This document shows positions 1 to 43,718 of a stretch of DNA of 47,168 bases, one piece after another. A program made the position numbers and the translations under genes. Each line of letters opens with the position of its first letter. The stretch's first letter is position 1. Source of the DNA: Rhizaria sp. SCN 62-66 (Eukaryota); NCBI GenBank assembly GCA_001724265.1, contig MEDY01000089.1:124001-171168 (forward strand), in the 5' to 3' direction. Under the pieces are notes generated by a model, which worked only from the letters and a program-made list of their open reading frames with translations, was not told the DNA's origin and did not search any database.

Positions 1-2583
1 ACTTTCGTCCGGGGCGCTGGCGCTGCCATCGGCAACGCGGCTGTAGTGCGAGTGAGAGTAGCCGACGAGGGCGGTCGCAACTGTGAGCGCAAGCTCCGGC
101 AGCGCCAGCCGGGACGCCAGCGCGGATCGTTCAAGCCAGTGCCGGCGCTGCCCACAGTCGCTCTTGGAACCACCTGGAGTCTCGCCCTCGCTCTGAGTCT
201 GGCTCAGAAAGCGGTCGAGTGCCTGCTGCTCCCGGCGACGCCTCGCTGCCGCGGCGGCCGCGTTGGCGGTGTAAGTGTCCAGCAGCTCGGGCGTTGCGTG
301 GGCTATGTAGATCAGCAGCGCGATCATGTCCGCAGCGTACAGATCGGTCAGCGTTTGCTCCAAAGTCAGGGTCTTGCTAGGAGCAAGAGCAGCAGCAGTA
401 GACACTCCTGCTAAAGCGGGTAGTCTAGCCGCTAATGTTACTGCGGCAGAAGTTCGCGCGGCCTTCGAGTAAAGCACGCGGGGACAAGGGTGTGAGCCTC
501 CGATAAAGCTAAGCACGAATGATAGCATCAATCGCGAGTGCCCACGGTCGGGCGAACCGAAGAGGTACAGCTGAGAAGGGTCTTCTTTGCAGCCGTTATT
601 GAGAAGCTGCGCAACGATTGACGTCAAGCACTCTTGGTGACAAGTAGTTTGGGATTGTGACTGTGCCAATTCTTGGGCCAGAGAAAGAACCCCGAGCGTA
701 TCCCACTTGCAAATCGACAACGCAGCGCTACAGGCACTAAAATTTGCGTTCTTAGAGCCGTTCTTGGAAACACTCGTGTCAACGTTTGCAATCACAAGTG
801 TTGGTAGCAATAACGCGTGATACAGCAAAAATCCCGCCTCGGTCACAGCACGACTAATGTGAGTGTTTGTGATTGTGTTGTCGGTAGGGCTGTTGCGGGT
901 CGGAGTGAACACGCACAGCACGCTTGGCGGCAGCGGCCGCTCACTGAGCAGCGCTCCTGCCATTGTCTCCGCAGCACTCCTCATCGCGCTCAGGCGAGGC
1001 TGGCGACTTAGACGTGTCAGGGCGCTCACGCTGTAGAGAGCGCTGACCCGCGCGCGGGCGCTCTGATAGCCCTTAGTAACCGTGAGCAGCAGTGTCAGCA
1101 GCGGCAACACGATTGACGGCGGCGGTGACGGCGACGGTGACGACGTCGACGACGATGATGACGAGTGAGACGATGACAGCGCCAGCAACCGATCAGCAGC
1201 GGCGACAGGCGGCAATACAGGAATCTGTGCCAACGGCTGCTGCTGCTGAAAAGCATATGACTGCGCGCAGAGCGAGTCGGTGAGGAGTGAGCTGAACAGG
1301 GGTAGATATGCCGCGTAAAGAGGATCTAAGTACCTCGTAACCACGTCATGTAAGTACCCTTGATCTAGATAGGGCTGGATAAAGTCCCCGCCCTTCGCCA
1401 CAAGCGTCTCTGGGAGTGTGAAGATGAACGGGACAACGCGCAGCAGCAACGGTAGAAACACGGCAAACACGTTGACATTCATAGCAGAACGACTGTTCCC
1501 GCTTTGCGTCGACGTGATCGTAGTTGTTGTTGCTGTGAGCAGTGTTGTGAACACAATATGCGCCGCGTCAGCGGGCGCAAGGGGGGCGACTCCGCCCACA
1601 ACAGCACTTGATAGAGCGCGTGTCGTAGAGGCGCGGGCTGCGGCAGCGGCGGCCGCCGTCGTGACTGCGGCGAAGGAGTGGGTCGGGGCCGGCGGCATGA
1701 ACGGCTGAGGAGCGACGAACCCAGTGACGGCAACGGCGGCGGCGGCGGCAGCTGCCTCAGCCTCGGCGTCGATCTCCGACTCAAGGTTATCAGTCATGTT
1801 AAACTGAGAACCACCACGACTGCTGGCCAAGGGGGTAAGCAGGGCGCTGAAGGGAGCCGGCAACGCAGCAGCCGCTGCTCCCGCCACTGAATCGTTTGCG
1901 AAGCGACTGGCGTCGTCAGGCCCCGCGTTGCCACCGCTGCAGTGCAACGCCGTTGGCATAAACAGTGCCAAGTCTGTGAAGATACGCTCCAGCAGCCGCG
2001 CCGCCGCGTTAGCGGCCACGAAGAGCGGGGCCGTTACGTCCACCGGCGCAGACCGACCCCAGTACGCTGCGCCGAGCGCCGCGCCAAGCGCTGCGGCCGC
2101 AGTCGGCTAGCTCTAGGGCCCTGCAACGCAGGATGACTGTGTGCGTGACTGTGACTGCGCTTGCGAGCAGCAGGCGGCGGTGAGAGCGGCGACGGTGGCC
2201 AGTGCAGCCAGCGCCTGGGGCTGCTCGAGCGCGACCGCAGCGGGGTAGTTGTCAAGGACGGCAAGGGAAAACGCGTGGCAGGCCTCGGTAAACGCAGGCA
2301 CGTAGACCGAGGCAAGGTGCGCAGAGTCGCCGGCGCGCGGGGGCGAGGCGGCGCCGAGCTCGGTGCTGCGGCAGCGGAAGGAACGAAGCGGGGCTGCAGC
2401 TGAGACGAGCCTCGCGGTCGCGGTTGCAAGTATAACGTCATCAGCCGGAGTGCGTAAAAAAGACGGCAATGTGTGGCTCAGGGATACAAAGTCAACACGC
2501 GGGAACGCAGCCGAAAATTGGGTGCATTGTCCCGGGGAAGGCGCCGGCGGGGGCGAAGGAAACATGAGGCAGGGCGCTCCTGT
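1..2583 (-). CDS. Large unknown protein, 3'-partial (runs off the window), with in-frame TAG codons at 2113-2115 and 2107-2109; 5' exon(s) unresolved
   Basis: Codon-by-codon reading shows the frame of ORF 2113..2565 continues through GP-TAG-S-TAG-PTAAAA and has no further stop down to base 1 (~700 codons). The AT-rich stretch above ~2585 looks intronic. Confidence 0.75.
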
Positions 2584-2997
2584 CTAAAGCTGCCCACAGC
2601 AACAAATACAACAACCCAAAAAGTATAATTAAAGGGATAGAAATAAAACTACTTGAGAAAATGACATACACCTTTTTGTTAGGCTTGACAGATGAATGAC
2701 GAAGATTTTCAAATCCGTTAAGTCGAATCGCCAGACCCCATCTTGGCGCCACTCTCCATGTGCAGGCTGACCCCAACCCAACCAAAGCAAATGTGTTATC
2801 ATCAGTGTATTGAGAAAGAAAATGTACTTCAACACTACTGTGTATGCGGTGTTCTGTTTGAATATATTATGATATCCTTTCGAAGTGCGCAATTGCGTCG
2901 AATCACCCCTTCCTCACTCACGTCATGCAACGGCATATCTTCTTTGTCTCCACCTCATGGTTGTGGCTGTTAGAGAGACTGTCGCGCCCACGCACAC

Positions 2998-4557
2998 ATG
3001 AGCTGGACCCAGTTAGAGATACTTCGGGAGAAGAAGACACTTCGTCAGTTATACGCCGCAGTGGGCTACACCTCTTCGCTGCGGCCTGATGTCGCTCCCT
3101 TGGTGGAGCTTTGGAACGCGTTTTACGCCCGGCCCGACACCAGCGTGCTCCGCGACAGCGGCATCGTGCCTCTGCTGCTGCAGTCGCTCGTGTTGAACGG
3201 CGACTCCTAGGCCGAGGTCACGGAGCGCGCTAAGCTCGTCATCAGGGTGCTCGACAAGGCGGCAAGGACCGCAGACGGCGCTGCGCTGCTCGCGGAGTGC
3301 GGCGCTGTGGAGAAGCTCACTGCTCTGCTGCCACACTTCCTCGAGGCGCGAGACGTTAACACCATCGTCCTGCTCCTTCAAGTTGTTGCCGCCGTTGCAG
3401 GCATGTCCGTTGTCCCCACACCCGCCAGGCGCGAGGCGCTGACGAACCTGTTGCGCTACATGCTAGAGGTCGAGAAGCAGAAGCCGGTCCGATCGAAATC
3501 GCTCAAATTGACCTACGACGATGTCTACTTTACCGCTCTGAGCGGTTCAGTAAGCGCGCTCTACGCCGGCGTTTCCGTCGGCGCCGTTACCGCGCCCAAG
3601 CTACAGTACTCCGCGGTCGCCGCCCTGGTCCCGCTGCTGCGCCGAATCATCTGGCTCCACTCCTCGCCCCACAAGCTCTACGAACCCATCCGCTTGGCCG
3701 TGTACGCTGCGCTGCTCAGCGCGCTTCAGCCCGACAGCTGTGACAGCGACAGCGGCAGTGAGAGTGGCGGCGCGGGCGCTGACGATGCGAAGCGCCGCCG
3801 CGACATTGCGGACTTCGCGGCCAGTGGTGACTTTGAGCCGCTGCTGCTACAACTGGGCGACGCCAAGGTTGCGCAGCAACTGCAGCGCTTTCTCGCCCTC
3901 TTCGACGAGAGCGCGTTTGCGGGAGCGCTCTCGAACGAGCGGATCGGACGCCTCCTTGCGTATGTTGACGCCAAAAGCACGTTCAACTTGGCAGAGCAGA
4001 CGGTCTTCATGGGGCTGTTAGCTTCCATGACGGCGCACTCCGTTGAGTTTGCCCAGCGTCTCGCCAGCGCGCGCGGCTTCGCACGGATTCTCGACAACAT
4101 TAACAGCGCGTTCGGGGACCGGAGCCCGCCGCACTTTGCGGTGCTGTCGCATCACACGATGACTGTGTTCGACAACTCGCTCAGGTTGGCCCCAGACGCG
4201 GCGCGCGCGACGCAGCAGCTGCTGTCCGCGGGCGCCGTCGACACCTGCTGCACCCTGCTGATGCACTTCCTGCAGCCGAGCCGCGAGCACAAGAAGGCCG
4301 TGCTCGCCGGCGCGCGGCCCGGCGCGGACACCACGGCGGGGCTGCTCCGCGTGCTCCGCGCGATGATCAGCGCCGGCGGCAGCAACACAAACCCCTGCGC
4401 GACGCGGTTCCTTGCCTGCTACGGGCTGCAGGCGCTTGAGCTGCTGCAGAAAGAGGCGGCCGTGCCGGAGGGCGACGATGGGCCCGTGCTGCGCGAGCTG
4501 GCGCAGCTGCGTGGTATGCTCGTGCGCATGGCCCTCATCGCACCGGACACGGCCTAA
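2998..4557 (+). CDS. ARM/HEAT-repeat helical protein, divergent importin-alpha-like, ~519 aa, one in-frame TAG at 3208-3210
   Basis: ORFs 2998..3210 and 3247..4557 share a frame and are joined by GDS-TAG-AEVTERAKLVIR. ARM-like units: LRDSGIVPLLLQSL, LAECGAVEKLTALL, LLSAGAVDTCCTLL. The C-terminal NPCATRFLACYGLQALELLQ resembles the importin-alpha C-terminus. Ends in TAA at a drop in GC. Confidence 0.7.
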
Positions 4558-5093
4558 ACTCGAAATCAGGTTGCTGTGCCTTTTTGCGAATGTGACTCTT
4601 GGTCCATGACAGTGACTACGGTGGCACGGCAACATCATGGTTTCGCCTTGAAACAACGTGTTAAGAATATGTTATATTTGGTGAGATGCCCGTTGTATGT
4701 CATTTTGTTGTTGTGACCGCAGCAGTCTGAACTTTTCCTTGTGACACAACTCGCTACAAGTACTCGAATGATATGATCATATGTACTCTAGGTGATTACT
4801 TCCTACTATGCAGATATAATGTGCTAACTTTATTGAAATACCTTTGTTATTGTCACTGTTCCTTTCTTTTTCATCCTATTGTTACCTGTAATTCATGTTA
4901 ATATCTACGTCTTTCGCAAATACTACGCTGACGAATACAGCAACCATTATACCTATTACTCAAAGCTCACAAAGATTCGTAAAATTTCATTGTGACACCT
5001 CTTGATTGATATATTATCGTCCTTCATGCAGGTGTGATTGCCATGGTCACCCGCGTCACATGAACGTCCGTGACACAATAAATAACGCAGTGC

Positions 5094-5669
5094 TTATGAA
5101 TCGTACTCTTTGTACGCCCACCAGCTGGCGCGCGGGGACGACCGACTCGCAGTGCGAATATCGTGCAAGGCCTTGTGGATGGGGTTCTTAAAGAACAACA
5201 CTTGGGAGACGAGATCCCTCTGGCTCAAAGTAAAGTTGCTGCGCTCCCTCAGAAGCCTGTAGAGAAACTCGTTGAGCTCAGCGCGGAACTCCGGCTCCTT
5301 GTGCCGCGCGATCTCAAACAAGACGTCAAGAATCCGCGGCGATGTAAAGCGGTACCACCGGCGGTGCCAAACGTAGCGGCCGTCGAGCCCTACCCCGTCA
5401 TCGTCATGGGGCTCGAAGCTGGCGGAACTGGGCTGCACAAAGACGTTCGAGTGAATTTCCACACAGCCGCCGTTTTCAAACGTAGCTTGAACGCCGTCAG
5501 GAAGCTTGAAAGTGAAGAGGCAGGACTCGCGGTTGCCGTTGATGATGTCTTCTCGGTTGTGCAAGTGCCCCGTCGTCATGTTACGCGACGCGTACGCCAA
5601 CCCGTGCAGACGAGAAGGGTCGAGGGTGTACGCGTCAGCCGTGTCATCGCCTCCCGTGTTGTGAGCCAT
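5094..5669 (-). CDS. Unknown ~191-aa globular-looking ORF; either a separate gene or the C-terminal part of the upstream gene beyond a TAA
   Basis: ATG at 5669, TAA at 5094-5096. It lies in the same frame as the 5682..6941 gene, 12 nt after that gene's TAA. Confidence 0.5.
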   Translation of the reverse strand: MAHNTGGDDTADAYTLDPSRLHGLAYASRNMTTGHLHNREDIINGNRESCLFTFKLPDGVQATFENGGCVEIHSNVFVQPSSASFEPHDDDGVGLDGRYVWHRRWYRFTSPRILDVLFEIARHKEPEFRAELNEFLYRLLRERSNFTLSQRDLVSQVLFFKNPIHKALHDIRTASRSSPRASWWAYKEYDS

Positions 5670-5681
5670 CACGAAAGTCGA

Positions 5682-6941
5682 TTAGGGCACAGCGCTACCA
5701 CACGCCCCCATAAACTCATTCTCAGCGTGTCTTTTGGTTGCCTGAGCCACAGCCAGCTGCTTCTCAACGTTAGCGACTTCCTTAGCCACAGTGTCGTCGT
5801 TCGCCGCCGCCACACTGCTCTCTGTCTGAAGGCCTGCGCGCCGAGTCGTCGCAATGCGAGCCTTGCACCGCGCAATCAAGTGCAGATACCAGGCTTTGAT
5901 GAGCCGAGCCTCGTTGCCCTCAGCGCTGTTGGTCTGCAGCAACTCAACATCAGCCTTTGCCGCCGACAGACGCTTCTCACCGCCCGCGCGTCCTTCAGCC
6001 ACCGCGGCCTTAGCGTCAGCCAACGCCTTGTGGGCCTTCGCAAGCATTATATCGGTCTCGGCCTTAAAGAGCGCGGATGCGGCCAGTGCGAGCTCGTTTG
6101 CAAGCTATTTGGTTGACGGGCTCGACTGCCCAGACTGCTCGGAAAGCTCCATAAGACGTGTGTTAGCAGCGAATAGACTGCTAATCGCTGCCTCATCCTC
6201 AACGCCCAACGTAACGGGCTTTGTCTTGTTGTTGCTGGACGGAGCAGTGGTCATTGCCGCGACGTGAGAAACCGGGTTGTCTGATGTCATAGCAGTGACT
6301 TCCTCGTCAGAGGACGTTGTGACCTCTTCCTCGGAGGAGGTTGCAAGTTCTTTGTCAGAAGAGGTCGCGAGTTCCTCGTCAGAGGTCGTGACTTCACTGT
6401 TGGAGTGTGTAGACTCGACGTGTGTTGTCGAAGTCAATGTGGCAAAGGCGCGCGCTGCGACGCACACTAGCGCAGTTCCCTGTAACAGCAATCTGCTTGG
6501 CCGCAGAGGCTGGAGCTCAGCACGCTGCTTTGGCAGCGCAACATGGTGCGTCAAGATCAGTGTGTGTGATAGCTGCGACGGTGACTAAGACTGGGACTGA
6601 GAGTGAAACAAAGCTGGCGTTGGAAAGAGCCTTGCAGATGTGGCAGCGCTGACGTTATTGTTCCATTTCCATCCCACGTCAGCGCTGGCAGTGAAGGCTT
6701 GAGCAGAAACGGTCCTAGCATTTGCAAACGTGTTGGCAGGACTGTGACCGACACTGTGATTCACTGAGCGCGGACTGTAGCTAGGGTTGGGACTGCGGCC
6801 GAGGCCCGCAACGCCGCCGCCGATGAATGCCAATCCGAAGTACTGGCGGGGGGTACTGCTGCGGCGGGTAAGCTTAGATGGTACGTGGATGTGTGGTGCG
6901 AGATAGCGGGGCGCATGAAAGGAAATGTGGCGCGAAATCAT
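5682..6941 (-). CDS. Unknown Ser/Thr-rich and coiled-coil protein, ~419 aa, in-frame TAG at 6585-6587 and 6105-6107
   Basis: ORFs 6585..6962, 6105..6554 and 5682..6047 share one frame, joined as HSQSQS-TAG-SPSQ and PSTK-TAG-LANELALA. First ATG is at 6941; ends at TAA 5682-5684. Confidence 0.65.
6296..6395 (-). repeat. Coding tandem repeat, ~24-nt unit (TSSDEE[LV][AT]), about 4 copies
   Basis: Translation reads VTTSDEELATSSDKELATSSEEEVTTSSDEEVT. Confidence 0.7.
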
Positions 6942-7390
6942 TGAGCAAGCGTTGTCTGTCACTCAAGTTCGAAGATCGCAGACAGGAATGGCACAATATA
7001 TGTGTTATAAAGATAACCAAGTCAGCGTTGTTGATTAAAGGTTGCAATCAGAACATTGTAAAAGGAGTAGCAGTGAATGCTTTGGTGTTAAGCAGTGGGT
7101 AAGACAAATGGAAGTTGTGGGGTGCATGTGACTAGCGGTTTAACTGTGGGAGATATAGAGAGCAAAATAATCGTCATTAAGACCGTGCGTAACGTTGAAT
7201 AATACGGTAACGTGACGGAATTAATTTATTCACTGTTTTCAAGCGCTTAATTGGCTATATGTGTGACTATTGGTACCTTTTTATCGCCCGTACCGAGATC
7301 GTGAATCAAACTACGCTATCGCAGGGCAACCTGAGCGGCAAGTTAGAACAGAAATCCACAAGGCAGAGAAACCGAAGAAACAACGGGACA

Positions 7391-7620
7391 AGCAATCTAA
7401 GTGAGCGGAGTTCGACGAAGAATCGATGAAACTGTCAATAAGATGAAGTTTGTATTCTGACCCGAAGTCAGAACACCTAGCTGAGCAGCCGAGAGTGAAA
7501 GGTGCGACGGAAACGCGTAGCGCTGCCAGTTTTGTACATGCCTGAAGAAGTAACAATAAAAGCAATTTAAACGTGCGGAAGTCCACGAACAGTCGATGAA
7601 GCTGTCGATAAGATGCAGGA
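7391..7620 (+). repeat. Imperfect 60-bp direct repeat (7391-7450 and 7561-7620)
   Basis: Ungapped manual alignment at offset 170 gives 46/60 identities (core TCGATGAARCTGTCRATAAGATG). Confidence 0.7.
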
Positions 7621-8039
7621 TTGGTTGACGTATGTCGACCTCATCTGACCCTTGGTTTCTTTGCTGCTCACGGTCACTCGTTCATGCGATGACTGTGAGC
7701 ATTTACATGTTTAGAAATATGGAGGATCCAAACATTAAAAAAACGTACATCCATCTATGTTGAATGGTGATTTTGAGATGTATTGATCAACTTTGCCGTT
7801 GAATGAACAAAAAGATATGATCAAGAAATTTGTCGAAAAGCTTCGTAAAGAGTACAGGAAGGCACAGTATGTAATTCAGGCACAAAACACAACACAATAA
7901 AAACAGAAATAAAATAAAATAAATACATAGCACGTCCAAAGAAAAACACAATATTAGCAAAAATATGAACGACTAGTAATAATATCGACTGTTTGAGAAC
8001 GTCTGAGTGTCCCTTATCGTCACGGTGACAATGGGTTAC

Positions 8040-11000
8040 TCACCGGTCACGATAAGATGGTGGTGCGTCCCGTAGGTTAGTGAGCTCGACCTCTGGCGGC
8101 GCCGAGGACGGGTACGACTAAGAGTTTGAGGCAACAAGTGCCGAGCCAGCACCAGTCTGCTCAGGCTGATGCGGATACGTGTGCGCTGCGTAGGGTCGCT
8201 GGCCAGGAATGTTGAGGAGTGGCGCGCCGTAGCTTGATGAGGGTGTGACAGGTGAGGCCAGTGACCGGTTGTGTGCCGATGGAGTGGAGCTGAAGGAGAG
8301 TGTCGGGAGGTTCTGCATCTTGCCCTCCGCAGACGGTTTGTGATACTCAAGTGTCTTTGTACGGAGAACGGGCAGTGCGTCGCAGACGCCGACACGGTCG
8401 ATCTCGTAGCTGGGGAAGAGAAAAATAAAGTTGGGAATATTGAAGGTTGCAACTAAAAACCAGGGCTCCAAGTGCACAAGTTTCCGCTGTCCAGGACAAC
8501 ATAACCAGTATGGGAACGGGCGTCCGTAAGACGAAACATCGCGGAATGCAGAGGTGATTGCCGTGGCAATGCGTTCGCACTCGGCGTCGCTGAGATCAGC
8601 GAACAGCCTCATCTCAGCAACACTATGCAAGTATGTTGGCAGCAGCGCCCTCGCGTCGTTGTCATCTGCCTCTGCTGCATCCCCATCGGCCGCGCTTGAA
8701 GACACGTCTGGATTGCTCTTCTGCATCTCTTCGGGAGACTTGAGTTCCGTTGGATGCGCAGCCAACACTGCGCGCACAAGATCGTTTACAATCGGGATAA
8801 ACTGCACCGCGGCGTCACCGGCCTGACTCACGTTCTCAACGCGCAGGGACAACGCGCGCCGCACTTGGTTGTGAATGCGCAACGCTGGTTCACGCTTCCA
8901 TGTCTGGTCGTTGCGCCAACGCTCGAGCAAGATCAGGAAAACTTTCAACGCTAGAGAGCCAAGGATGGACAAGAAACTGATCGTGATCTGACCAAGCGCT
9001 GTATCAAGGAAAGGCTTTGCGGGAACATAACACTGTTCCGCGGATGTGGCGCCTGCCGGGCTTGTGTACCCAGCACCACACGACACGCATGTCTCAGATC
9101 CTTCCAACTCTGCAAAGTAGCCGGGCGTGCAAGAAGTACAGCCGCGCGCCATCGGGCTGTCGGCCGCACGCCCCGGCTCACACGCAGTGCACGTTTCCTC
9201 GGTCGTCTGTGCTGCGTACGAGCCGGGAGAACAGGGCGTCGGCGCCGCAGAGCCCAGGGGACACATGTGGCCGTAACCGCAAGACGTGCTTGCGAGAGTC
9301 ACAGTGGCGCCGGGGCAGTAGAACCCGCTCGGGCATGGTGTCGCTGACGTGGCGTCGCGGGAGCACAGGCTGCCGCGCGGGCACGGCGCAGTCGCAGTTG
9401 AACCAGCGGGACAGTACTGGCCCTCCTCACATTGCACGCGCGTGAGTGCATCAGTGTTTGGGCAGAAATAACCCGCAGTGCAGTTGTAGCTAGAGGCCTG
9501 TGCGGGGCAGTAAACGCCGGGTCCAGGCGGGCACGCGCGCTCAGTAAAACTACCTGCGAGACAGTAGTATCCCTCACGGCAAGGCGCAGGGACAGATGCC
9601 GGAGTTGTGCACACAAAGCCTGCTGCACACAGGGTTTGCTCCAAACTGCGCTCGGGACAAGTTGAGCCATCGTCACAGGCAATTGGCGCCGTGGAGCGCT
9701 GCGGGCAGTACGTGCCCGCTTGACACGGGATCGCAGTCATCACATCCGGGCAATAGTAGCCGCCAGCGCATGGCAGCTCCGCTGTGGCGTCTGCAGGGCA
9801 GTACGAGCCATCAGAACAGGGCACGGACTCGGACACGCCCGACGGACAGGCGTGACCAATGGGGCATGGGCGCACCTGCGTCGGGTCTGGGCAGAAGCTG
9901 CCGGCCGGGCACGCAGCGGGCACTGTGGAGTTCTCGACGCACAGGCGACCCAACGCACAGGGTGTCTGGACAGTTGGCGACGAGCACGCGTAGCCAGCGG
10001 GACACGCCTGCTGTTCAAGGCTACCCGGCGGGCAGTACGTGCCGGCAACGCATGCAATGCGCTACGAAGGATTAGGGCAGTAGTAGCCCGCGGGACACGG
10101 CAGCGCCGCGGCCGAGGACGTGGGACACCATGCGCCCGCGGCGACTTCCGCTGATGTGCACGACACAGGTGAGTTGCTATTCTGCGGGCAGTAGAACCCA
10201 ACTGGACACGCAATAGACTGTGTCGGGGACGGGCAGTAGTGACCGGCGGTGCAGTCGTAAAGCACGGCACGTAGCGAGACTAAGAACGTGTCACCGGGGC
10301 CGCGGTCATTGGAAGGCGTGACCATGTAACTGCGCGTGGTGAACAGCTCCTGCACAGTACCGTACACGGCACCAGTGACGGGGTCAAGTGAGAGACCGAG
10401 CGGTAGCGTGGGTGAGATTGAGAAGTAAACCGGTGATGGAGAGTCACAGTTTTCTGGTGAAGCGGAGAAGTACTTTGCTACAGTGACCATGTGCTCTGCA
10501 AGCGGGAAAGTGCAGCTTTTCACCTTAGCACCAATGCACGAGTTGAGGTAGCCGTCTCCACGCATTGCGGAAGGCGCAAACGACTGGCCCTTGCACTGCA
10601 CGGAGCCGCCGCCGCGGATCGCTGCGGGCTGATCTAGCAGTAGCGTAGATGGCGTTGTAATTGCAAGCAGACCGTCAATCACAAGCTCAGCGCCTACACT
10701 GATGTTAAACGCCGCAGGCGCCGGGTTAGCTGACGACGAGGCCGGCGGGGTGAGCGTGAGCGCGCGGGTCGCAGTGACTTCAACACGAGCTGTCGCCAAC
10801 ACCTCGGTGCGCGCAGTGAGCAACACGTCACCTCCAATGCGGCTCGTCGTTAACGTGCCTTCCACGGTCACCAGCCCTGCGCCGAGCACCGTCAACGCGG
10901 GGACACCTTGCGCAGCGGGCGGTGCGTCCTCAGCAGGCGCGAGCGAGCCTGTGCGCAGCACTGCGCCAGAGGCTACAAACATCACCCAGCCCACGGGAAG

Positions 11001-14000
11001 CGCCTGTTGAGTCGTGGGTGCAGACGAAGACGCAGTGGGGTCACGCGTATAAAGTGTCGTGCCAGTGGCAATCTCGAGTATGCCAGAACCTTCAAGAATA
11101 AGACCCGCAGCGGGCAGCATCACTGTGGGCGTTGCGTCGGTGCCGCGGAGCACAAGGCGCGCACCGGCGCTGCTTGAGACAAAGCGTGGTGAAAGCGTTG
11201 ATGTTAATGCGCTAATCACAATCGCGGAGTGTGGCTGTGTAAGCAATACACGCGGCGCAGAGGATGTGGGCGTCTCGAGCGTTGTCACAAAAAGTACGGT
11301 AGACTCGGGATCGGCTTCCTCGGCGGCCCAGTCAACGGATGCTGGGACTGCTGTCAGAGTTGCAGTGGTAAAAAAAGCAGCAGCAATAGCATGTGCGGGG
11401 TCTGAACTTGCATAGATGCTCGGTTGCTCATCTATTATTGACAGCAAAGCGGCGGAACCTTGAACGTCAACGCTGAGAGCTGCTGATGATGCGAGCTGAA
11501 GACGACCAATAGCCCGGCCCGCGCGAGCAACACGCAGCGTGCCTGCAAGAACCGAGAGCATCGGAAGCGAGTTTTTAAGCTGCGCTTTCAAAAGCCCACC
11601 GTTGCGCAGCACAATACCAGTCGACTCTAATGTAGAGTCAACGTAAATAGAGCCGGAAATTGTAATTGCTGCATTGGTGGCTGAGCCGGCATCGGCGCCA
11701 GACGCAAGTGCAAGATCAAGTGTGGCTCCTGCCTCAAGCTCTACTGTTGACGACTCTGAAAAGAGCACGTTGGAGGCGGAGATGGCAAGCGCCGTGTCTG
11801 CCAAGAGATGGATCTTGCCGAGGACGGTAAGTGTGGCGGAGGAATGTGAGAGTGAAAAGTTATGTGACATCCCGGAAACTGGATCAGCGGATGCTGGAGA
11901 CACAACAAGCGTTGCCCCCTCTTCGATCTGCAGCCGCACAGCGCGTGTGAGCGGTCCCAAGAACACAGCGGTTGACGATGCTGGATATGACAAAATGCCG
12001 GTGCCTTGAACGCCGCACTGGGAAAGTGGGCGCAACTCGCCGGAGACAAACTCAACTGGTACAGTCGAGGAATCAACCTGCACAGTGCCACTGTTAAGAC
12101 AGCCTCGGTAGAGGAAGCGCGGGGACGCCGCTTTAGTCAGTGCGACGGTCAGTGTAGACGCCTCTGTGCCAGTGGCAGCCGTGTCGAAGACGATGGGCAA
12201 CAGCAGCGAAAACGACGTGTTGCCGGATACGGTTACAGTGGCGCGATAGAGCTCAAGTGACCCAAGCGTGGAGTAAGCTGGCGGTGGCGTGCCGTCGTCC
12301 TCAGCGTCCGTGACAATCACGAGCGATGTCGACTCAACACGGAGAATACCCAACGAGGCCGCACCACCAGCAGCGGCCGCAGCAGCGGCAACGCCAGTGC
12401 CATCCTCCTGCTTACCGACATCAATGCGGCCACGAATGCTGCCGCCACCGCCACGGAGTGTGCACGTGGCGCCCGGTTCAATGCGCAGTGTAGCCGTCGG
12501 CAGCAGTATGAGCGTAGCCGTCAGCACTGGCGCATAGCCGGCGGGCACGACAAGTGTGCCAGCGACTGTGAGCGCTGGCGACACAGTGCCTGCCATCCGC
12601 AGCACTAGCGTGGCAGTTGCGGGAATTGTGAGGGTGGCGAGTTGCGCTGGGTTTGAAACAATCTCTGTCGTAACACCAGCGGGCACGAGCACGGAGCCGG
12701 AGCCAGAGGTGCGGCAGCCCGCGGCAATTGTGCCAATGAACAACAGCTGTGCCGCTGCACCAGGACCCGGGAAGGCAACTAGACGGTCACAGTGTTCGAC
12801 TATCAGCGTACCAGGTGTGGTGGAGCCAGCCACGGAGAGCGCTGTAGCTGACGCAATGCCGGTTGTTGTCGGCAGCACAACGGGCATGGCGCCGCGGATG
12901 ATGATGGACGCCGTGGTGGTGTTTACAGTCGATGCGAATGCAGGAATGCGCATTTGTGATGCGGTCGCAGCGACCGCAGCTGAGGGGTCAATGACAACGT
13001 CGCAGTACGTTGTACAGGCAAAGGTTGGCGAAACAAAAGCTGGTGAAGAGTCATACTGCACCCAACCAAGCATGTCAATGCGAGCAAACGAAAACATGGA
13101 GTTAGGACCAAGGAGCAGCGTTGACGATGGAGAGAAGGACACGCGGGACTGCGTGCCGCTGTGAGGAGTCAGTAACGTAGCTCCTTCTGCAATCTCAACA
13201 GTGCCGTTGTTAATCACGTATGCATTGTTGCTAATGGAGATCGTTATCTGGCTCTGCTCTGGGATTACAAGACGGCCTCCCTCTTGCACAATCACAGCTC
13301 CACCTGAGGACATGACGAGGCTCTTCGTCATTGAGATGCGAGTGCCGGAATTTACAACAATGGGCACCCACAGTGTGGTTGCTGTAAGAGTGGGGAATTC
13401 GCCGTCCTGCCAAAGTTCGATTGTTGGGGAAGAGCTTGTCAGGTATAGACCTCCTTTAACGGGCGGCTGATAGACGTTACTGGGTACGAATGTAGGTACG
13501 TTAAACGACGAGGAACACGTACTGGCAGAGCAGGCAAGAGCGCCAACGCGGAGCACCGAGTTTGCACCGATGTAATTTATACTAGACAGCGAATCCGTTT
13601 CAGCGTAGTGGATGAAGCTTCGCACTTCGCCTTCAATGCGCAAGTGCACATGAACTTTGTAGTGCACATGCGCAATCTCAAGGAAACCTGACGGCGAAGT
13701 TGTGTCAGTGACGTTGGGCCCATACTCTGCAAGAGTTTTAGGGGAGTCACCATAAGCCGCAAGCGTTACCCTTGGTGAATTACTCGTCACGACGTACGGC
13801 AGCGGCTCCGTGAGCCGCTTTCCAATCTCGATCTGTGCAGATGCCGGCAGATTGATTGTGGCAGGACCCAGCTCCCGCTGCGGCCCAAGCCAGCGCACCA
13901 TGCTGGAGATCGTGAGCGTGCCGGGTCCTGTAACGCGAGCGTGGAACTCAGGAATGGTGCCCGTGGCCTGCGAGTTGTACAGCGACGCGAATGCGCCTTC

Positions 14001-15704
14001 GCCAATGTGCACTAGCGCAGCTGGCGACAAAAACGTCGTCGAGGCAGGCGCGTGTGGTACCGGAAGCTGTGCGGTAATTGTACCAACGACTTCGACGCGG
14101 CCCAGAAACTGCATCCGGCCAGAACCCTGCAGATATAGCTCGCGCGCGCTTGCGAGGCGATGGTTAAGCGACTGTGACGCCGCCTCGCTGGATTCCTCCG
14201 TGCCGGTGTACAGCGTGCTTCCATAGGGCAGTGTAAAGGTCCAACCAGTAAACTCGAGACGCATGCGCACAGTGGTTGTAGCCGTGTTCGAGGGTGGGTA
14301 GACGTCCATGGTCAGTGTTTCACCCTCCGGCACTGCCGCGGCACCTGAGCCTGAGAAGGCAAGAATACACCGGCAAGCGATTGTACCGTGCAGAAACACA
14401 CGCGCTGTGGCGTCGGCGCCAGTGACCGGGATGGTGATGTCGGTCGACTCCCAAACGCGCCGCGGCATGTCGCCCAGCCACAGCGTGCTCCGCGCAGAGA
14501 GTGCGAAAGATCCGCGCGTGGCGTTGACCCAGCCCGCGCGCAGCGTCGAGTCTTCCAACGCTGCCAGCGCGCTGACAACAATTGTGGTCGGCGAGACCGA
14601 GTCGAGCACGAGCCTCTCGGTCTGCACCTCCGCGCCGGGACCGACTTGAACCGCGGAGGAGCGCGCGTCGACGCTGCCGATTGCGAGCAGCGGATGTGCG
14701 TTCGCAGCAGCCCCACGCAGGAGACCAAGTCCTGAGCTAGACCCGCTGCCCGCGCTGGAGTGCGCGAGCGTCCCCGCAAAGGCGAAAGGTGAGACTGCGC
14801 GCAGTGGCGTGGCTAAGTCGGCTTCGATGCGGCCGCCGCCGGAGACGAGGCCTGAGAGCGTGATGCTGGTGATTGAGCCGGCACCGGTGAAGGTCAGCGT
14901 ATCGCCCAGCTCAACTGAGAACGTGACTGCGGTTGGTGGTTCGACCACGGGCGAGGCGGTTGTGGAGAGCACGCCCCATGATGTGGTGGCTGTTGTGGAA
15001 GGGAAGCGCACGCGGCCCGAGGTGCCGCGGCCAGCAGGGTCGTGACGCAGCGTGTACTCAAGGATGCACGGCGCTGTTGCCGTAGTGCCGATAGCGAGCA
15101 AGACCAAGCCGCGAGTGAAACCAGTGCGCAACGCAGCGCTTGCACCGCTACTGGCAGTGTTGCCGCACTGCACGGTCGCCTCGGTCGTGCCGTTTGCGAC
15201 GACGCCGGCGACAATGACGTCAGAGTCAACAGTGACGACGCCGCCGTTGAACAGAACAACGTCATCTGCAGAGGGCAGTGAACCACCGTCCCAGTTACTT
15301 GATACGCCCCAGAAACCGCCCGACGCGCCGATAAACCGCTTAGGCGCGCGCGGGGCGAGCTGTGCGAAGTACGCCTTCTCGCTGGGGCCAGAGAGGAAGA
15401 TGGCTTGGATGGACACGTCGTAGACTTGGCCGTTGGTCAGGCCCGTGAAGGTGTAAGACGTCGCAGTGTAGAACTGATTCACATTGGCAATGACGGTGCT
15501 GCTTTTAACACATTCGAGTGCGTACGAGGTTGGTGAGATTGAATCGAGTGGCGCGTTCCACTTTACTGTAAGCGAGCTGTCCCCAAAGGAGATTCGCAAG
15601 TCGCGAGGTGGGGAGAGAGCGCTAGCGAGAACCGCAAAGGTGAGCACAAGCAAGCATTGCCACGCCAGTAACCATGAGGCGGCATGCCAACGCTCTGATG
15701 GCAT
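8040..15704 (-). CDS. Giant type I membrane/surface protein, ~2554 aa: signal peptide, FN3, G8-like/beta-rich region, putative Ig (He_PIG-like), Cys-rich CPAGxYCP (GCC2/GCC3, ephrin-receptor-like) repeats, TM helix, cytoplasmic tail; in-frame TAG at 10062-10064 and 8118-8120
   Basis: ORFs 10062..15704 and 8118..9953 share a frame, and the Cys repeats run straight through the TAG (CPNPS-TAG-RIACVAGTYCPPGSLEQQACPAG). After the second TAG the frame reads SYPSSAPPEVELTNLRDAPPSYRDR then TGA (8040-8042). Motifs: PPRDLRI..LTVKWNAP..YTFTGLTNGQVYDVSIQA (FN3), WGVSSNWDGGSLPSADDVV, LPLGLSLDPVTGAVYGT, TM GQITISFLSILGSLALKVFLILL. Confidence 0.85.
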
Positions 15705-16220
15705 GTTTGTCTCACAATGACAAGCTACAACGAACGAATGAACTTCAAATACAGGTGGGGCTGAAGATAGCAGACGGGCGACAGACTGAAGTGAGTTGGT
15801 CGAGGAAAATGCGAACAGAGATGTATGTCGATGCTCGATGATAACCTAGTTTGGTGACGTATGTCAAATAATTAATGGCAATACGGGATAATGTTTTGAC
15901 TCCAGTGGGACGACAGAGACATTTAATTGAGTTGGTTTGGGGAGACCCTCCACAGAGAGGCTACAAGCGAGGGCGAAGTCTCCCGGGAGTAATCCTTTTA
16001 GTCAGAAAATCTCAGAGACTCGTCATTGTGTTGACGATGACGTGGTGACGGTATGCGCTCCCCTTATCGTTAATATAATTGATGCATCATTCACGGGTTT
16101 TTCCTTGCATAACTCACCGCCAATCCATAATTGTAACTCCCGAAATCTTCATTAGACTCCAGCAGAAGCCAGCGTCCGTTTTCGCACTCGAGGGCGAATT
16201 CAGCCATCCCGAACAGGCTT

Positions 16221-19200
16221 ATGTATCCGGGCTCCACCTCGTGTACGTACAACTTTTACCTCCAACACGTGATGATACATTGGGTATGCCAGTGTGGATA
16301 CTGTATAGGTACTATATCTTTGTAGTGACATTAAATCACGACATGATTGCCAAAAACTCACTTCATCCTCTGCCTTCATCTCGTCACGTCGCTCAGACTA
16401 CGGGCCGTCATCGCCTCCCACGGCGTATAACCAAGGCAACAACAGGACTGCGCCTTATAGCTCAAGTAGCTTCTCGCACAGCTCCTCCAGTGCTGCAGAC
16501 TCGAGGTCCCGCAGTGCCGGCTCTGTCCGGCCGCTCACCGCAATCGACGGTTTCATCGACCTCGCCTCTGACTCCTCCAGCTCCGCCTCAGGTTCCGAAT
16601 CCGACAGCAGTGAGGCTTCGCAGCGCGCCAAGCGCCGACGCCTTGCGCGTCAAGGTGACCGCGACCGCAACAACCGTGACCGCGACCGTGAGCGTCGCAG
16701 TCGCCGGAAGGAGGACAAACACAAAGACAAGAAGCGCAGTAAGAAAGGCAAGCGTGACAAGCGTGACAGCAAAGCCGGTGGCGATGGCGATGGCAAGAAG
16801 GACCGCAAAGATAAGCGCCACTCGCTCTCTTGCAGCAGTCGTAACGGCGGCAACGAAGGCTCTCGCCTCGTCTTTGACGACTCGAACGACGAGGTCGCAC
16901 TGGCCCGCCCTACGATGACGGCCAGCAGTAGCAGTGGTGGAAACAACAACAGCAGCAGCAGCGGCGGCAACATTAGTTACAATGTGGCTAGCCATGGCCC
17001 CTTAGGTGCGTGTGTCTCGCCATTCAACCGTAGCACCTCCACCGCATCAGCCGGGACAAGTCCAGTAAAGGCGGCAGCAGCCATGGCGGCAGCAACAGCA
17101 GCGGCCGCGGCGGCGACAGCGGCCGCGACGTCTGCGGCCCCCGTGACTCGGCCCCCCACTACTATCGACGGCGAAGTCATGATCGCGCTGACTCTGGAGC
17201 AGCTGCGTTCGATTTCCATGGCGATGAAGCTTGCGCCCGCAATGGGCCGCGTGGCCGCCGTGCACAAGTTCCCCGGCTCCGTGCCGCCGTACCACCTCGC
17301 CGCGGGCTCGACGGCGCTGCTGCCGTTGCCGCGATGGCTCACCAACAACTACCCCACGATCCACGACGACACGGCGCGGCTGCGCGACCTGTGGTCCATG
17401 TCGCTCCACGTCAAAGCGCTCGCGGGGTCGCTGGAACGCACCACGGACGTGTCGCTCTCCTTCTTGCGCAGCCGCGGGTTCCTGTGCGCGCTTGGCCTTC
17501 GTTCGGACGGCACGCCTGACCCGCTTGCGGCTACGAGCAACAGCTCTGGACTAGCAACAACTGCTCCGACTGCTGCCGCCGCTGCTGCCGCTGCGGCTGC
17601 GGCTACTTATGCGCCAACGAGCCCAGCCTCCGCTACGAGCTCGTTCTCGAGTGTAAACTCTGGCGCAGGTGCTGCCTCTAGCAGCGGGCTGTATGCCGTG
17701 AACCAGACAGCGCGCGCGCAGCTCGCGACGACGAGCTCGCCGCTGTCGTTCGACTTCCCCGTCTCCATACTATCGCGCTTTCCGGCGCGCGTGGTTGCGC
17801 TCGTCCGCGCGGCAGCCGCGACGGGCGTGGCGCTGTATGTCTCGCGCAACCCTCCGTCGCGCATCCCGCCGTACTTTTTCGCGCACGTCACGGATGCGTC
17901 GTCACCGCTGCGGTCCACAGCGACTGCGCCGCTGCCGTGTGCGGTCACAGCGCGCTACATCGGCGCGTGCTCGGAGGCGGAGCTGCGCGCGGTGTGGGCG
18001 CTGCTGGCGTATCACGCCGCGATCTCAGATGCCGCGGCGGACTACCGCGCAGGGCTGCCGCGCGGCGTGCGAAAGTGCAACGAGCATGGGCGCCAGTACG
18101 GCATCGTGCTGCCCGAAGTTGCTGGCAGCGAGAGCAACAACAACAGCAACAACAACAACAACGACAACAACAACGGCGCCGATGACAATCACTCTGACAG
18201 TTACGAGCATATGAACATGAACGAGAACAACGACGACCTGCGCAGCCGCGACCGCGGCCATATCAGCAGGGGATTCCGCAGTATTAGTAGCAGGACGACT
18301 GGTTCTGCGGACCGGAGTGGCGCTTCGGTCAGTGCTAAACACAGCGATAAGCGCAGCAGTCACAGGCGGTCCAAGTCATCGACGTCGTTGTCGTCATCGT
18401 CGTCAAGCTCCTCGTCTTCGTCATCCTCGTCATCGTCCTCTTCATCATCTTCGTCATCCTCGTCTTCATCGTCATCGTCATCATCGTCGTCATCGTCGTC
18501 GTCGATGAGCGAGAGTAGCGGCAGTGACCACAGCGACGCCGCCGCCCCAGACTACTCGTTCCCGCGCACTGTCAGCGACCAGCTCCGCTACCTGGAGGAT
18601 GTCGAGGCCCGCTGCTCGCCCAGCCGCACGCTTATGCGCGCTCTGCGCAGCGCCACCAAGCGCGGCGTCTCCGCCTTTGTGCTGGCGCACCCAGACGCGA
18701 TGCCGGCCTTCCTGGACGACGGGACGGACTCGCGCGAATCCCCGCTGCCTCCGGACTGGGCCGCCGCGCACCCGCTGCTCGCGCACAGCGATGCGTTGCT
18801 GCGGCAGGCGTGGGCGTTCAAGCTGCACCGCGCCGCGCTTATCGCAGAGTACCAGGCCCGCTGCGCGCGCTCGGGCATCGGCAAGAAGGCCCGTCGCGAC
18901 AAGGACAAGCGTGACAAGAGGGGCCGGGACCGGCGCGAGAAGAAAGATAAGCGCGACAAGAAGGGCAGACGTTTGCGCCGCCGCAAGCGCGACGAGCGCC
19001 GCCGCAAGAAGCGTCACGAGCGGCGCGCGCAGCGCAGGCTGGAGCACGAGCGGCACCGTGAGCAGCGCCGTGAACAGCGTCGGGCCGAGAAGTTGCAGCA
19101 GCGCCGCGCACGCGAACAGGAGCGCGAGCAGGAGCAACTGTGGGAGCAGGAGCAGGAGTTCGAGCAGCACCATCAAGAACAGCACCACCAGCAGCAGTTT

Positions 19201-22200
19201 CTACAGGAGCAACAAGTGCAGCAACGTGAACGCGAACGTGAGAGCGAGAATGAACGTGATAATTAGCGCGAGCCTGACCATGGGCGTGAGCGTGAGAATG
19301 AACGCCCTGAGCCACCACGTACGCGCGCATCGGGAAACAATAACAACATTGACAAGAATGACAGTAACAAGAACGACCATAACAGCAAGCCTGCGGCTCA
19401 GCTGACTATGATTGATGAAAAGGCCGACTTCCGCGACTCAACGCTGGACGCAAATGGTTGTCACAGCTTTGCGCACCTGAAGTACCTGCAGGGTGACGAG
19501 CCAGCGCGTGACTTCGTCTCGCGTATGCTGCCACGGGTACCTGCCTACGTGTCCCTGCGCACCAACACGGTGACGGACCGTGTACCTGCGCGAATTACTC
19601 GCCTCTTTGGCGGCGAGCCCGCTCCGTTGCAGCGCGCGCTCTGGGCCTTCCTTCTATTTTCGGAGATAGAAGCGGGCGTGAATATTGCCCGTGCTGTGGC
19701 CGCAGCGCGCAAGGCCGAGCGCATGGCCGCTGGCGCCAACGACGGCGTGGAAGCTAGTGACAGCGCGCACGGTGGTGACATGAACGACAACGCCGACGAA
19801 GCGAACTCGGACTCGCACAATCGAAGCCGCTTGCGTGCATCTCGTCGCGGCAACAATCGCGGTCAGAATGCAAGTGACGCTAACACTCGCAGTGGTGACA
19901 GCAACAACAGCAGCAGCAGTGATGCTCGCAGCCGTAGCGCCAGCGGCAGCGACAGTGGCGATGAGAGCTTTGACGACGAGATGATCGCATTTGTGCCCGT
20001 TTCTCGCTTCAGTCGTCAAGACGCCGTCGCGGCGCTTCGTGTGATGCTTAAGTACGGCCACATGTCGCCCGCAGCCTTCATCAAGGAAGTGCGTGAGCGC
20101 GATGCACCGCTGCCGCCGTTCAAGTTTGCGGATGGGTCCACCAGTGAAACGAGTCCGATTCCATTCAATATGCGTGAATTGACGTCCAGGAGTTCGGCTG
20201 CGGCTCAGCGCCGCTTCTGGACCTACTCGTCCTTCCGCGCTTGCTATCGCACCATGATGCGCGTCCGTGAGGGCGAAACCTGGTTGAAATAGAACAGTGC
20301 TAAAACTGGCTTAAAGGTGCTGAATAAGAGCGCAGCAACTGACCGCCGTTCGACACAGTCGCGTTCGCGCGCGCGGTCGCCATCGAAGTCACGTTCACGG
20401 CCACGCTCACACTCCCGGTCGGGAGCTAGCTCAGACTTGGAGTCTGGCTCTGGGGTAAGCTCTGACTTGGGCTCGGGCTCTGACAACCTGCGTGCGGCCG
20501 TGCTTGCTCGCCTTAAGTACCCGGACTCGCCTGCGGGCAAGCTTGTCCGGCGCCACTGGCGTATCCTAAACGGGCTGCGCGTTGATCCCACGTCGGACCC
20601 TATTCCGAAGAGCGTTAAGCGTAGCCGCGCTCCCTCTTCCGAGGACATGTACCGCTGCTTCTGGATCCATCGCTTGATATTTGACCGTAAAAAATCGCTC
20701 AGCCGTGGTGGTAATCAGAATCCATCTGGTCCGCAGAGTAACAATCGGGTCAGCACAGCGTCGGGATCGAACTCAGACTCGGGCTCTGGCGGCTCCGGCG
20801 GCGACAAGCACGGCAAGGGCAGTGGCACTGACGCCGGCAGCGACAGTGACGATAATGGCAACAGCAACCGCGGCAGCGGCAGCAACCGCGGCAGCGACAG
20901 CGACAGTGGCAGCGGCAGTGGCAGCGGCGGCGGCAGCCCGGGCGGCACAGTCCGCGAAGGCGACGCGCTCGGGGGCTTGCCTGACACCGAGGGCCGCGAG
21001 TGGCTACGCAAAAGCACGCCCGTGGCGCGCTTTATGCGCCAGAACCGCGAGTACTTCCTGCGCGCGCGCGTGGACCCGTCGCGGCACACTGTGCCCGACG
21101 TTCTGGTGCGCGAGGGCAACGGCTGCGACGAACCGACGCTGCGGCTGCGGTGGGCGCGCCGGCTTTACAGGCAAGACTGCAGCCGCCGGCGCAAACGTGA
21201 CGAAGCCGCGAATAAGGATAACAGCGGCAGTGACAGCGGCAGTAACAGTGATAAAGCCAATCGTCCTTCTTCCCACCCGCGCCGTGAAAGTCGCAAGTGT
21301 GACGGCGGTATCAACGACAGCGAGCACAGTCAGAAGGACACCAATAGCGTTTCGTCGCGCACCACCACCACCTCAGCTTCCGCGGCCAGACCGTGGAAGG
21401 AGCCCGCGCCACCGCGCGTGGTGCGCTCGCTGCCCGACGACACGGTCCCGCTGCTCGTGCGCACGCGGCGCGACCCCGAGGCCGTGGCGCAGTCGGTCGA
21501 CTTCGAGCATGCGTTCCGCGAGGAAGAGACGCGCCAGTGGCTGCGTCGCAAGGAGATTGCGCGTCTGAAACGTGATGCGAAGAAGGAACTCGAGACGCAG
21601 GTCAAGCTCGAGCAGCAGCAGCCCCCTGGCTACCAACAGCAACAACAAGAGCAACAGTCTTTGTTGCAAGCTGCGCTACTGCCTGCTGGCGCGCAGTCTG
21701 TGCCCGAGCCTCAGTCCGCACAGGCACAGGCGCCGGCACAGGCACAGTCTGAGTCCACGGAATCACCGTCGCAGCGCAACCGTGCTGGTGAAGAGGAGGA
21801 GGAAGAAGACGGTGATACGAGCAAGAAATCCGCAAGCGCGCAGACTCGCTCGTAGCAAAACTGCAATGACGGTGCCGCCAGCGGCAACACCGGCGTTGGC
21901 GCTGGTGCTGCCAACGCGGCGGGCCACGCTGTGGGCGCCGCCGTGGCTGCCGCGCTGGCGGCGGTTGACTCGTGGGCCGCCAAGTCAAACACCCGGGGGC
22001 TCGTCACGACTGCTCACGATCACACTCGCACTTCCGTCTCCGCCACCGCCACCGCCACCGCCGCCTACGCCGCCTCCCTCACGGCCGCGCCGACTGCAGA
22101 GCCGGTTGTGACTGTGACCGCAGACTCAGCTGATGTAACGGCGGCAGTGACGCCTGGTGCTGCGACAAAAGAGTCGGTTGTTGGCGATGTTGTGAGTGAG

Positions 22201-38400: not shown

Positions 38401-38938
38401 CCGGCGTCGCCAGTGTTGCTGAGAACGCAGTCAGTGATGTTTACGCCAACGCCGCCGCTGCTTCTGCTGCTGCAAGTACCGGCACTGGCAAGTCGAGTCG
38501 GCGCAAGAACAAGCGCGTCGAAAAGCTCAACAAAGATGCTGCTTCTCCTTTTGTTGCGTTTGCCCCGTTCCCCAGTCCCGCGGCGCAGTCTGTCGTGGTG
38601 CGTGGCGCTGCTGCCGCTGCTGCGGCGGCGACAGTGGGGGGCGTGCGCAAGAGTGACGCGCGCAGTGCTGCCGTTGCAGTCGCGCCTGGTCAGCCCCCGT
38701 CCCGCACTGTCACCGAGGCGGTGCGCGCGTCTAAGTGTTCTCTTACACGGCTCCTGGCTCCATATATTGTTCCCGCAGCGCTTTACCCGCGCGACGCTCA
38801 TAGTTCAACCGCTTTCTCGAACAATGACAGTGTGCACGTTAGCAAGCCCGTGCAGTCATTGAACGCCACGGTGACGGACGCTGTGTTGTTCGCTGAAGAT
38901 TGCGATGACAGAGATGGCTCTGATGCTGACAGCGATAG

Positions 38939-38970
<32 letters not shown>

Positions 38971-42830: not shown

Positions 42831-42865
<35 letters not shown>

Positions 42866-43718
42866 GTTATCGCAGGTGCCTCTGCCGCCGCCGCTGCCGC
42901 TGCCCACCGTCGCGGTTGTCTCTGCGTACGGCACGCCCTCACTCACGCCCATCCCACAGCAGCAGCAACAGCAGCAGCAGCAGTTGTATGGCGCAGGGCC
43001 CAACGCTGGTCACGGCAACGGGAATGGGAACTACTCGTTCACGCACGGCATGGGCGCCGACAACACTGCGCCTCGCAGCACAGCGATCTCAGGGAGCACT
43101 GGCGTTACTGCAGTTGGCGCCGGGGCTGCGGGCGGGGGCGCTGGTCTCAACGTGTCGCTGCCTGCGTGGTCGTCGGCGGCTCCTGCGTACGTCGCGGTGA
43201 GCGCTGCGGCTGGCGGCCCTGTGCCCGCTGGCTATCCCGCGCCCCGTGCTGCTACGGCGCTGCCGTAGTCGCAGTCTGCGGTGCACGCACCTGCCTACGG
43301 TCTCCGGCCCACGGTCACAGGCGCTCAAACCAACGGCGGCGATAGTGCAAGTGGCGACAGTGTGCACGCGGTGATTGCGCGGCTGACGGCAAAGAACAAC
43401 GCGCTCAAGCTGCAGCACCAGCAGCAGTCCCCGATGCGCGCCGCCAAGCCCGTCAGTAACCACGTTATCAGTGTTGGGGCGAACGCAAGTGTCGATGCGA
43501 AGGCAGCACCTTAGTCCGTGCGCCCGTTTCTGTTGAGTCAAGGCCGAGTTGACAGCAGTCTTAACAGCTCCGCCACCGTTGACTCGCGTCGCGCGAGCGT
43601 TGGATTTGGGAGAGAGTGGGCCCCCGATGTCGAGGCATCCGGCTCCGGCCGGTCTCCGGGCGCGGTGCGCACCATGCAGCGCGTCGCCACGGTGACCGAC
43701 GATGATGAGGGCATCTAA
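35490..43718 (+). CDS. Giant Ala/Ser/Pro-rich, largely low-complexity protein of unknown function, ~2742 aa; in-frame TAG at 43266-43268 and 43512-43514
   Basis: The 2592-codon ORF continues in frame as TALP-TAG-SQSAVH and KAAP-TAG-SVRPF to TAA 43716-43718, where GC content falls. Confidence 0.8.

Follow-up and report, generated by a model that had tools for sequence, protein, structure and literature searches.

Apparent reassignment of UAG alone, probably to glutamate, in the nuclear genetic code of a protist

Introduction

The 47,168-nucleotide stretch of DNA analysed here (the window) encodes on its minus strand a long membrane protein whose reading frame meets a TAG codon in the middle of a cysteine repeat, and the question it raises is whether UAG is a sense codon in this organism and, if so, for which amino acid. 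The initial annotation proposed glutamine. Nuclear codes rarely uncouple UAG from UAA, and in the cases described UAG specifies leucine, glutamine or serine, or glutamate only together with a change of UAA. UAG alone is assigned to glutamine in Iotanema spirale, Hartmannula sinica, Trochilia petrani and Protocruzia tuzeti, to leucine in the rhizarian exLh and three phyllopharyngean ciliate MAGs, and to serine in Scotinosphaera (PMC5304391, PMC11687900). UAG specifies glutamate in peritrich ciliates, in which UAA is changed too (PMC10553269, PMC10089648), and both UAR codons do so in Campanella umbellaria as well as Carchesium polypinum (as cited in PMC10553269) and in Blastocrithidia (PMC12153298). 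Our literature search, which covered largely open-access main texts, found no description of a nuclear code in which UAG specifies glutamate and UAA is a stop.

The genome assembly surveyed (34.9 Mb, 714 contigs) is that of a eukaryote, has introns of the GT-AG type and contains about 11 dynein heavy-chain loci, and the organism is therefore probably flagellate. Judged from window positions 2000-21999, several studies have runs that contain it, from bioreactors, wastewater and fuel cells, and over the same interval the strain in run X4 is about 1-2% different.

Results

The window protein and its TAG codons

With TAG read through, the gene encodes a protein with a probable signal peptide (suggested by the hydropathy of residues 8-31), a fibronectin type III domain, a long ectodomain, Cys repeats, a membrane anchor and a cytoplasmic tail (Table 1). 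The repeats are of the same type as those of GCC2/GCC3- or ephrin-receptor-like Cys-repeat surface proteins (PF07699), to which the window protein adds a fibronectin domain and a single anchor, and the family is an ordinary one; there are 538 homologs at E<=1e-10, and the PF07699 match at residues 2189-2225 of the window protein itself scores under the cut-off.

Table 1. Positions of the features discussed, in the window unless another locus is given
Feature	Position	Strand	Remark
In-frame TAG, coding-like sequence on either side	3208..3210	+	Markov test
In-frame TAG, coding-like sequence on either side	6105..6107	-	Markov test
Open reading frame, intron-free, 2554 residues with TAG read through	8040..15704	-	type I membrane protein; ends with TGA at 8040-8042
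Second in-frame TAG, codon 2529	8118..8120	-	alignment with ortholog P0187 extends past it
Transmembrane anchor, hydrophobic, residues 2240-2261	8922..8987	-	kept in ortholog P0187
CxxGxxCP repeat array (19 counted, residues 1818-2160), then ephrin-receptor-like Cys repeats	9030..10253	-	
In-frame TAG, codon 1881, read through	10062..10064	-	column uninformative on residue
Fibronectin type III domain, residues 31-102	15399..15614	-	PF00041, E 6.6e-9
N-terminal hydrophobic stretch, residues 8-31	15612..15683	-	hydropathy
In-frame TAG in 2165-residue frame 16294-22791	19264..19266	+	others at 20290-20292 and 21853-21855
Adenylate kinase, mitochondrial AK3-like	27713-28441	-	
Torsin-like ATPase	29070-30890	-	
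In-frame TAG within torsin-like domain	30465..30467	-	Pfam gain over X: Q +1.4, K +1.2, E +0.9 bits; weak, leans Q
TRIP13-like AAA ATPase	32581-34020	+	in-frame TAG looks like a splice acceptor
DnaJ protein	34367-35074	-	
In-frame TAG near end of 2742-residue frame 35490-43718	43266..43268	+	another at 43512-43514; frame ends with TAA
tRNA gene, anticodon CUA, tRNA-Glu body	G000:C84, L035:1489-1561	-	Rfam 58.0 bits

The three repeats on which the glutamine proposal was built do lie in one minus-strand frame, starting at residues 1818, 1870 and 1932 (positions 10253, 10097 and 9911), the first two inside the interval to which they had been assigned and the third just outside it. The TAG is indeed in the middle one, at 10062-10064 (codon 1881), and the truncation foreseen in the initial annotation follows from the standard reading: under translation table 11 the open reading frame is 10062-15704, with a product of 1880 residues that lacks the anchor, which lies downstream of the TAG. 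That TAG fills exactly one residue within a 15-residue repeat, so that no intron is needed, and a contig from a separate study (run X3) spans positions 9878-14614 with no differences to the window, so that the TAG at codon 1881 is not an assembly error. The ortholog P0187 from a relative, 2551 residues long and 50% identical in global alignment, aligns without a gap over the first TAG, through the anchor and beyond the second TAG at codon 2529, and read-through is therefore required.

TAG as a sense codon across the genome

Stop codons preceded by coding-like sequence were put to a six-frame Markov test of whether coding goes on past them; the test was used in place of a simple codon-score model, which was confused by antisense frames. 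In the main set of 537 kb (49 stretches of 10 kb, 490 kb in all, plus the window) coding continues past 17 of 25 TAG codons, one of 63 TAA codons and none of 35 TGA codons. The model was trained on the loci on which it was tested, and a separate 80 kb was hence held out, in which coding continues past one of three TAGs, none of 12 TAAs and none of nine TGAs; the two TAG drops there look intronic by translation. With both sets combined, coding continues past one of 75 TAA and none of 44 TGA codons, and TAA is the commonest stop. These counts and the alignment with P0187 bear out the suggestion of the initial annotation that TAG is a sense codon and that TAA and TGA remain stops, and we regard a reassignment of UAG alone, with UAA and UGA retained for termination, as very likely.

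The eight TAGs of the main set at which coding drops are mostly accounted for. Four follow a GT donor and look intronic, two look like shadow frames, and the others are the second TAG of the window protein, through which the ortholog reads, and a TAG at L145, a locus with tandem genes of the group XII secretory phospholipase A2 family. One of these genes has a TAG 19 codons upstream of a TAA, the PLA2G12 Pfam match ends upstream of that TAG, and it may be a true gene end, the sole candidate noticed. In Condylostoma-type codes with context-dependent codons the same codon both ends and codes; the one possible TAG end seen here is that at L145.

TAG is very rare, at 28 of 116,960 codons (0.024%), and there is none in the 27,808 codons of 10 dynein heavy-chain frames. 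Such rarity, together with a CUA tRNA gene of one copy (see below), an eRF1 that keeps E55, NIKS and YxCxxxF, and the possible gene end at L145, would fit a UAG that is still a stop but a leaky one, in which case the in-frame TAGs would be nonsense alleles that the organism tolerates, with partial rescue from an amber suppressor. We consider this improbable: TAG is nearly absent where coding stretches end, its eight largely explained drops standing against 62 for TAA and 35 for TGA (numbers that include intronic stops and so are not all gene ends); the zero in dyneins is no lower than general codon bias predicts, TTA being 8-fold rarer in dyneins too; and the essential gene for eRF1 itself carries a TAG.

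Removal of TAG from the mRNA by editing or splicing, or its origin in assembly errors or pseudogene lesions, is more improbable still. TAG is often an intron acceptor: among 142 kinase matches nine have TAG only, five of them exonic and four splice acceptors, four of five further domain matches with TAG are likewise acceptors (one is exonic), and the single match with TAG among 43 of the DEAD-box family is an acceptor. The RNA run X7 is sparse, with no contig over a TAG among those listed. Against these points, TAG aligns as one residue and without a gap at seven sites (the window site, eRF1, L160, L096, L097, L101 and L102), the same TAG recurs in the X3 contig for the window protein and in the JGI contig L159 for eRF1, TAA and TGA do not have the read-through pattern, and a CUA tRNA is present.

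Which residue UAG specifies

The argument for glutamine had been that TAG stands in a glutamine column of the repeats, which is not what the column contains. Elsewhere in the window protein it occurs in 18 repeats, with Q twice, T six times and E not once; P0187 has T where the TAG is and V and L in place of the two Qs, with Q or E at none of the 19 aligned positions; and 123 equal-length repeats from 120 homologs have T 25, E 12, A 12, V 11 and Q 10 times. The two Q repeats quoted in the initial annotation were a selection. The column is uninformative about the residue at codon 1881.

Nine exonic TAGs lie within Pfam domains and were scored as the gain of each residue over X. The summed gains are +13.1 bits for E, +10.0 for Q, +7.9 for K and -8.8 for L; by site, E is ahead of Q at four, Q ahead of E at four (by 0.1-0.5 bits) and one is a tie. 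Only two of the nine sites are decisive, and both are near-invariant glutamate columns. At the first, in the L160 kinase (C18), TAG is the hinge residue directly after the gatekeeper, where 12 of 12 paralogs from the same genome have E (with the codon GAG in the three closest) and the homologs have E 145 times and Q once (146 aligned of 149). The column does tolerate other residues, as KSR carries S there and RAF kinases have Q. At the second, in eRF1 (L002), TAG corresponds to human position 107, for which the homologs have E 106, D 11, V 1 and Q 0 (n=118, from 120 matches after two double-length records were dropped). A TAG in an invariant glutamine column was found at none of the nine domain sites, a small sample. 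Among other residues, leucine is rejected by its -8.8 bits over the nine sites and by the lack of a long-arm CUA tRNA, and tyrosine and tryptophan are rejected by their Pfam scores, with Tyr, Trp and Ser scored at three of the nine sites only. The public predicted protein of the L160 gene, P0122, ends exactly at the TAG, so that standard-code annotation truncates this kinase, and public gene calls for the organism halt at TAG.

Evidence from sites of less constraint points the other way. In a context classifier with an AUC of 0.76, for which 8,462 Glu and Gln positions served as training data, P(Glu) averages 0.42 +/- 0.05 over 21 TAG sites, similar to the 0.41 of Gln sites and unlike the 0.64 of Glu sites, an outcome that leans towards glutamine. 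By substitution counts between strains, TAGs arise from CAG about three times as often as from GAG, and a mutation-supply estimate for a glutamate codon at unconstrained sites predicts a mean P(Glu) of 0.47. In a diverged ubiquitin-like copy TAG stands where the paralogs have CAG, and NEK1 has Q at the TAG column of L097. A Pfam domain covers the TAG at one of 13 bulk sites and at neither of two later sites, and a local paralog search was informative at two of 23 TAG sites, with E or Q at neither.

The glutamine-like contexts of the 21 sites, the CAG of the ubiquitin-like paralogs, the Q of NEK1, the presence of Q in two of the window protein's four other short repeats and the slight lead of Q at four of nine Pfam sites would all be expected if UAG specified glutamine, in a table-15-like code of the Iotanema type, by way of an unassembled tRNA-Gln(CUA), a near-cognate tRNA-Gln(CUG) or a Glu-derived CUA tRNA charged with glutamine. 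This reading would have to accept glutamate-to-glutamine replacement at the two decisive domain sites, in columns with Q once in 146 and never in 118, and no TAG in an invariant glutamine column was seen; it also has the tRNA genes to account for.

A candidate decoding tRNA

Searched genome-wide, a short-arm CUA tRNA pattern, which would equally have fitted a Gln-derived CUA tRNA, gave six matches of which one is a tRNA, and a long-arm or intron-bearing pattern gave eight candidates with no CUA tRNA among them. The one tRNA is a single-copy gene followed 3' by a T-run, and it is identical to the organism's own tRNA-Glu(CUC) at 47 of 73 positions, to tRNA-Gln(CUG) at 33 and to tRNA-Gln(UUG) at 29; the next-best tRNA after Glu(CUC) has 40 of 73, among 19 tRNAs compared that do not include the organism's tRNA-Glu(UUC) and tRNA-Asp. 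The CUA tRNA matches tRNA-Glu(CUC) in acceptor pairs one to five and over most of the T arm, and a single change converts the anticodon CUC to CUA. Minimum free energy folding missed the cloverleaf for the CUA tRNA and for tRNA-Gln alike and was not used. The ORF flanking the gene fits the genome's coding model, which makes a viral origin unlikely, and the pattern has no matches in JGI metagenomes and IMG/VR. As a separate observation, a tRNA with anticodon UUG at L023:1501-1573 (minus strand) is unlike the genome's tRNA-Gln(CUG) in its acceptor stem and arms.

None of the 14 pattern matches is a Gln-type CUA tRNA (the assembly may be incomplete), and a well-formed Glu-type one is present. Weighing this one CUA tRNA and the two near-invariant glutamate columns above the results that lean towards glutamine, we conclude from sequence comparisons that UAG probably specifies glutamate, and consider glutamine unlikely. 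The TAG=Gln proposal is probably wrong: the repeat column lends it no support, the Glu-type tRNA and the two constrained columns contradict it, and glutamate at constrained TAG columns, as found in eRF1 and at the L160 hinge, is one of the outcomes that the initial annotation had itself named beforehand as speaking against glutamine, with the glutamine-like contexts of unconstrained sites pointing in the opposite direction.

The release factor eRF1

A single eRF1 gene was found, and its reading frame contains a TAG; the JGI contig L159, with the same TAG, is 100% identical to L002 over 1626 bases and may not be independent data. A scan for eRF1 sequences gave four loci, one from the same organism and three distant. 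In human numbering the N-domain, which recognises stop codons, has the lineage-specific changes T32S, M34V, G57S, T58K, F114V, L124M, L126M and K130Q. T32S and G57S occur in none of the 118 homologs and T58K in one, the relative P0004. This JGI protein is the closest eRF1 relative, 84% identical, and shares T58K, M34V, F114V and L126M while keeping T32; its organism may share or precede the code change. It has V at position 107, which is therefore relaxed in this lineage. In Iotanema Gly replaces Thr32, the residue that bonds with the G of UAG (PMC5304391); T32S is a conservative change, and its effect on UAG recognition is a hypothesis.

The TAG of eRF1 is followed by the exon's only AAA codon (the two codons at L002:1591-1596, minus strand; one AAA and 15 AAG; GC3 0.90), and true stops in this genome mostly have a purine after them. 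It is conceivable, if rather doubtful, that the reassignment has been caught early, with UAG gone from gene ends, barely used for glutamate, read by one tRNA and still partly recognised by eRF1, and that the UAG in the stop-recognition domain of eRF1 acts as a feedback sensor through which excess eRF1 would halt its own synthesis. The Val at position 107 of the 84%-identical P0004 argues against such a role, and a single TAG in a gene of this length can be chance.

Discussion

We propose that in this uncultured, probably flagellated protist nuclear UAG would be a rare glutamate codon, with termination left to UAA and UGA. The anticodon CUA may have arisen by a change of C36 to A in a duplicate of tRNA-Glu(CUC); the resulting tRNA would be charged by glutamyl-tRNA synthetase and would pair with UAG and not with UAA, and the altered eRF1 would recognise UAG poorly. 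Most TAGs would have come from CAG by C-to-T change at unconstrained sites that tolerate Gln-to-Glu, and for this reason many TAGs, the window's site included, would lie in glutamine-like contexts; at constrained sites TAG would replace GAG. Some residual termination at UAG, or insertion of glutamine through near-cognate tRNA-Gln(CUG), is possible. Work in human cells describes GluRS charging of a CUA-anticodon tRNA-Glu at the efficiency of the native tRNA; with an engineered CUA tRNA-Glu, about 95% of UAG sites received glutamate (PMC12204705). We note the trap that this origin sets: glutamine-like neighbours can mirror where a TAG came from and not what it means.

The proposed code has with the described UAG-only codes in common that UAG is sense, that UAA and UGA are stops and that a CUA tRNA cannot read UAA. 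Thr32 of eRF1 is changed both in Iotanema (T32G, PMC5304391) and here (T32S). The proposed code departs from the described ones in its amino acid, apparently glutamate in place of glutamine, leucine or serine, and in its sparing use of UAG, with 0.024% of codons here as against occurrence in 78-91% of genes in phyllopharyngeans (PMC11687900); in the published accounts of Iotanema and exLh the decoding tRNA is predicted but not seen, whereas here a gene was found. Like table 15 (the Iotanema type), the genome has in-frame UAGs in intact conserved genes (the window protein, kinases, eRF1) and retains UAA and UGA; no invariant glutamine column at UAG was found in the small sample of nine sites, and no tRNA-Gln(CUA) among 14 pattern matches in a possibly incomplete assembly. 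The features of UAG=Leu codes were likewise not found, namely leucine columns (-8.8 bits over nine sites) and a long-arm CUA tRNA.

The closest parallel in amino acid is Oligohymenophorea sp. PL0344, in which UAG is glutamate, UAA is lysine, UGA is the sole stop and there are 10 CUA tRNA genes, whereas this genome has TAA as its main stop and a single gene; in both the tRNA-Sup(CUA) is nearest to tRNA-Glu, at 69-93% in PL0344 and 64% here (PMC10553269). As in UAG=Glu codes, conserved glutamate columns (two decisive sites, the other seven non-discriminating) and a CUA tRNA nearest to tRNA-Glu are present, but UAA is not reassigned and TAA is the commonest stop. In the described UAR=Glu codes UAA and UAG change jointly; here they appear uncoupled, glutamate at the amber codon being common to both. 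In its workings (UAG alone, a CUA tRNA) the system resembles the Iotanema type and in its amino acid PL0344, and it departs from each in one defining feature. Rosculus vilicus differs in GC content (37.7%), and the portion of its description available to us mentions no nuclear code change (PMC10770858).

If UAG alone has indeed become glutamate, the tRNA and the altered eRF1 are testable parts for the loss of one stop codon, and the very low usage of UAG offers a natural test of codon capture versus an ambiguous intermediate. If glutamine is correct after all, the organism would add a further independent instance of a known but rare code, and its Glu-type CUA tRNA would be left to explain.

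Two further features of the genome are of note. The ubiquitin genes at L082, L083 and L085-L087 have two extra residues ahead of the usual start; no polyubiquitin junction was found, and the monomers end a few residues past GG. The SSU rRNA gene (L001:1501-5945) is very divergent and contains four group I introns, with about 500 extra bases before the first matched intron core that might encode a homing endonuclease.
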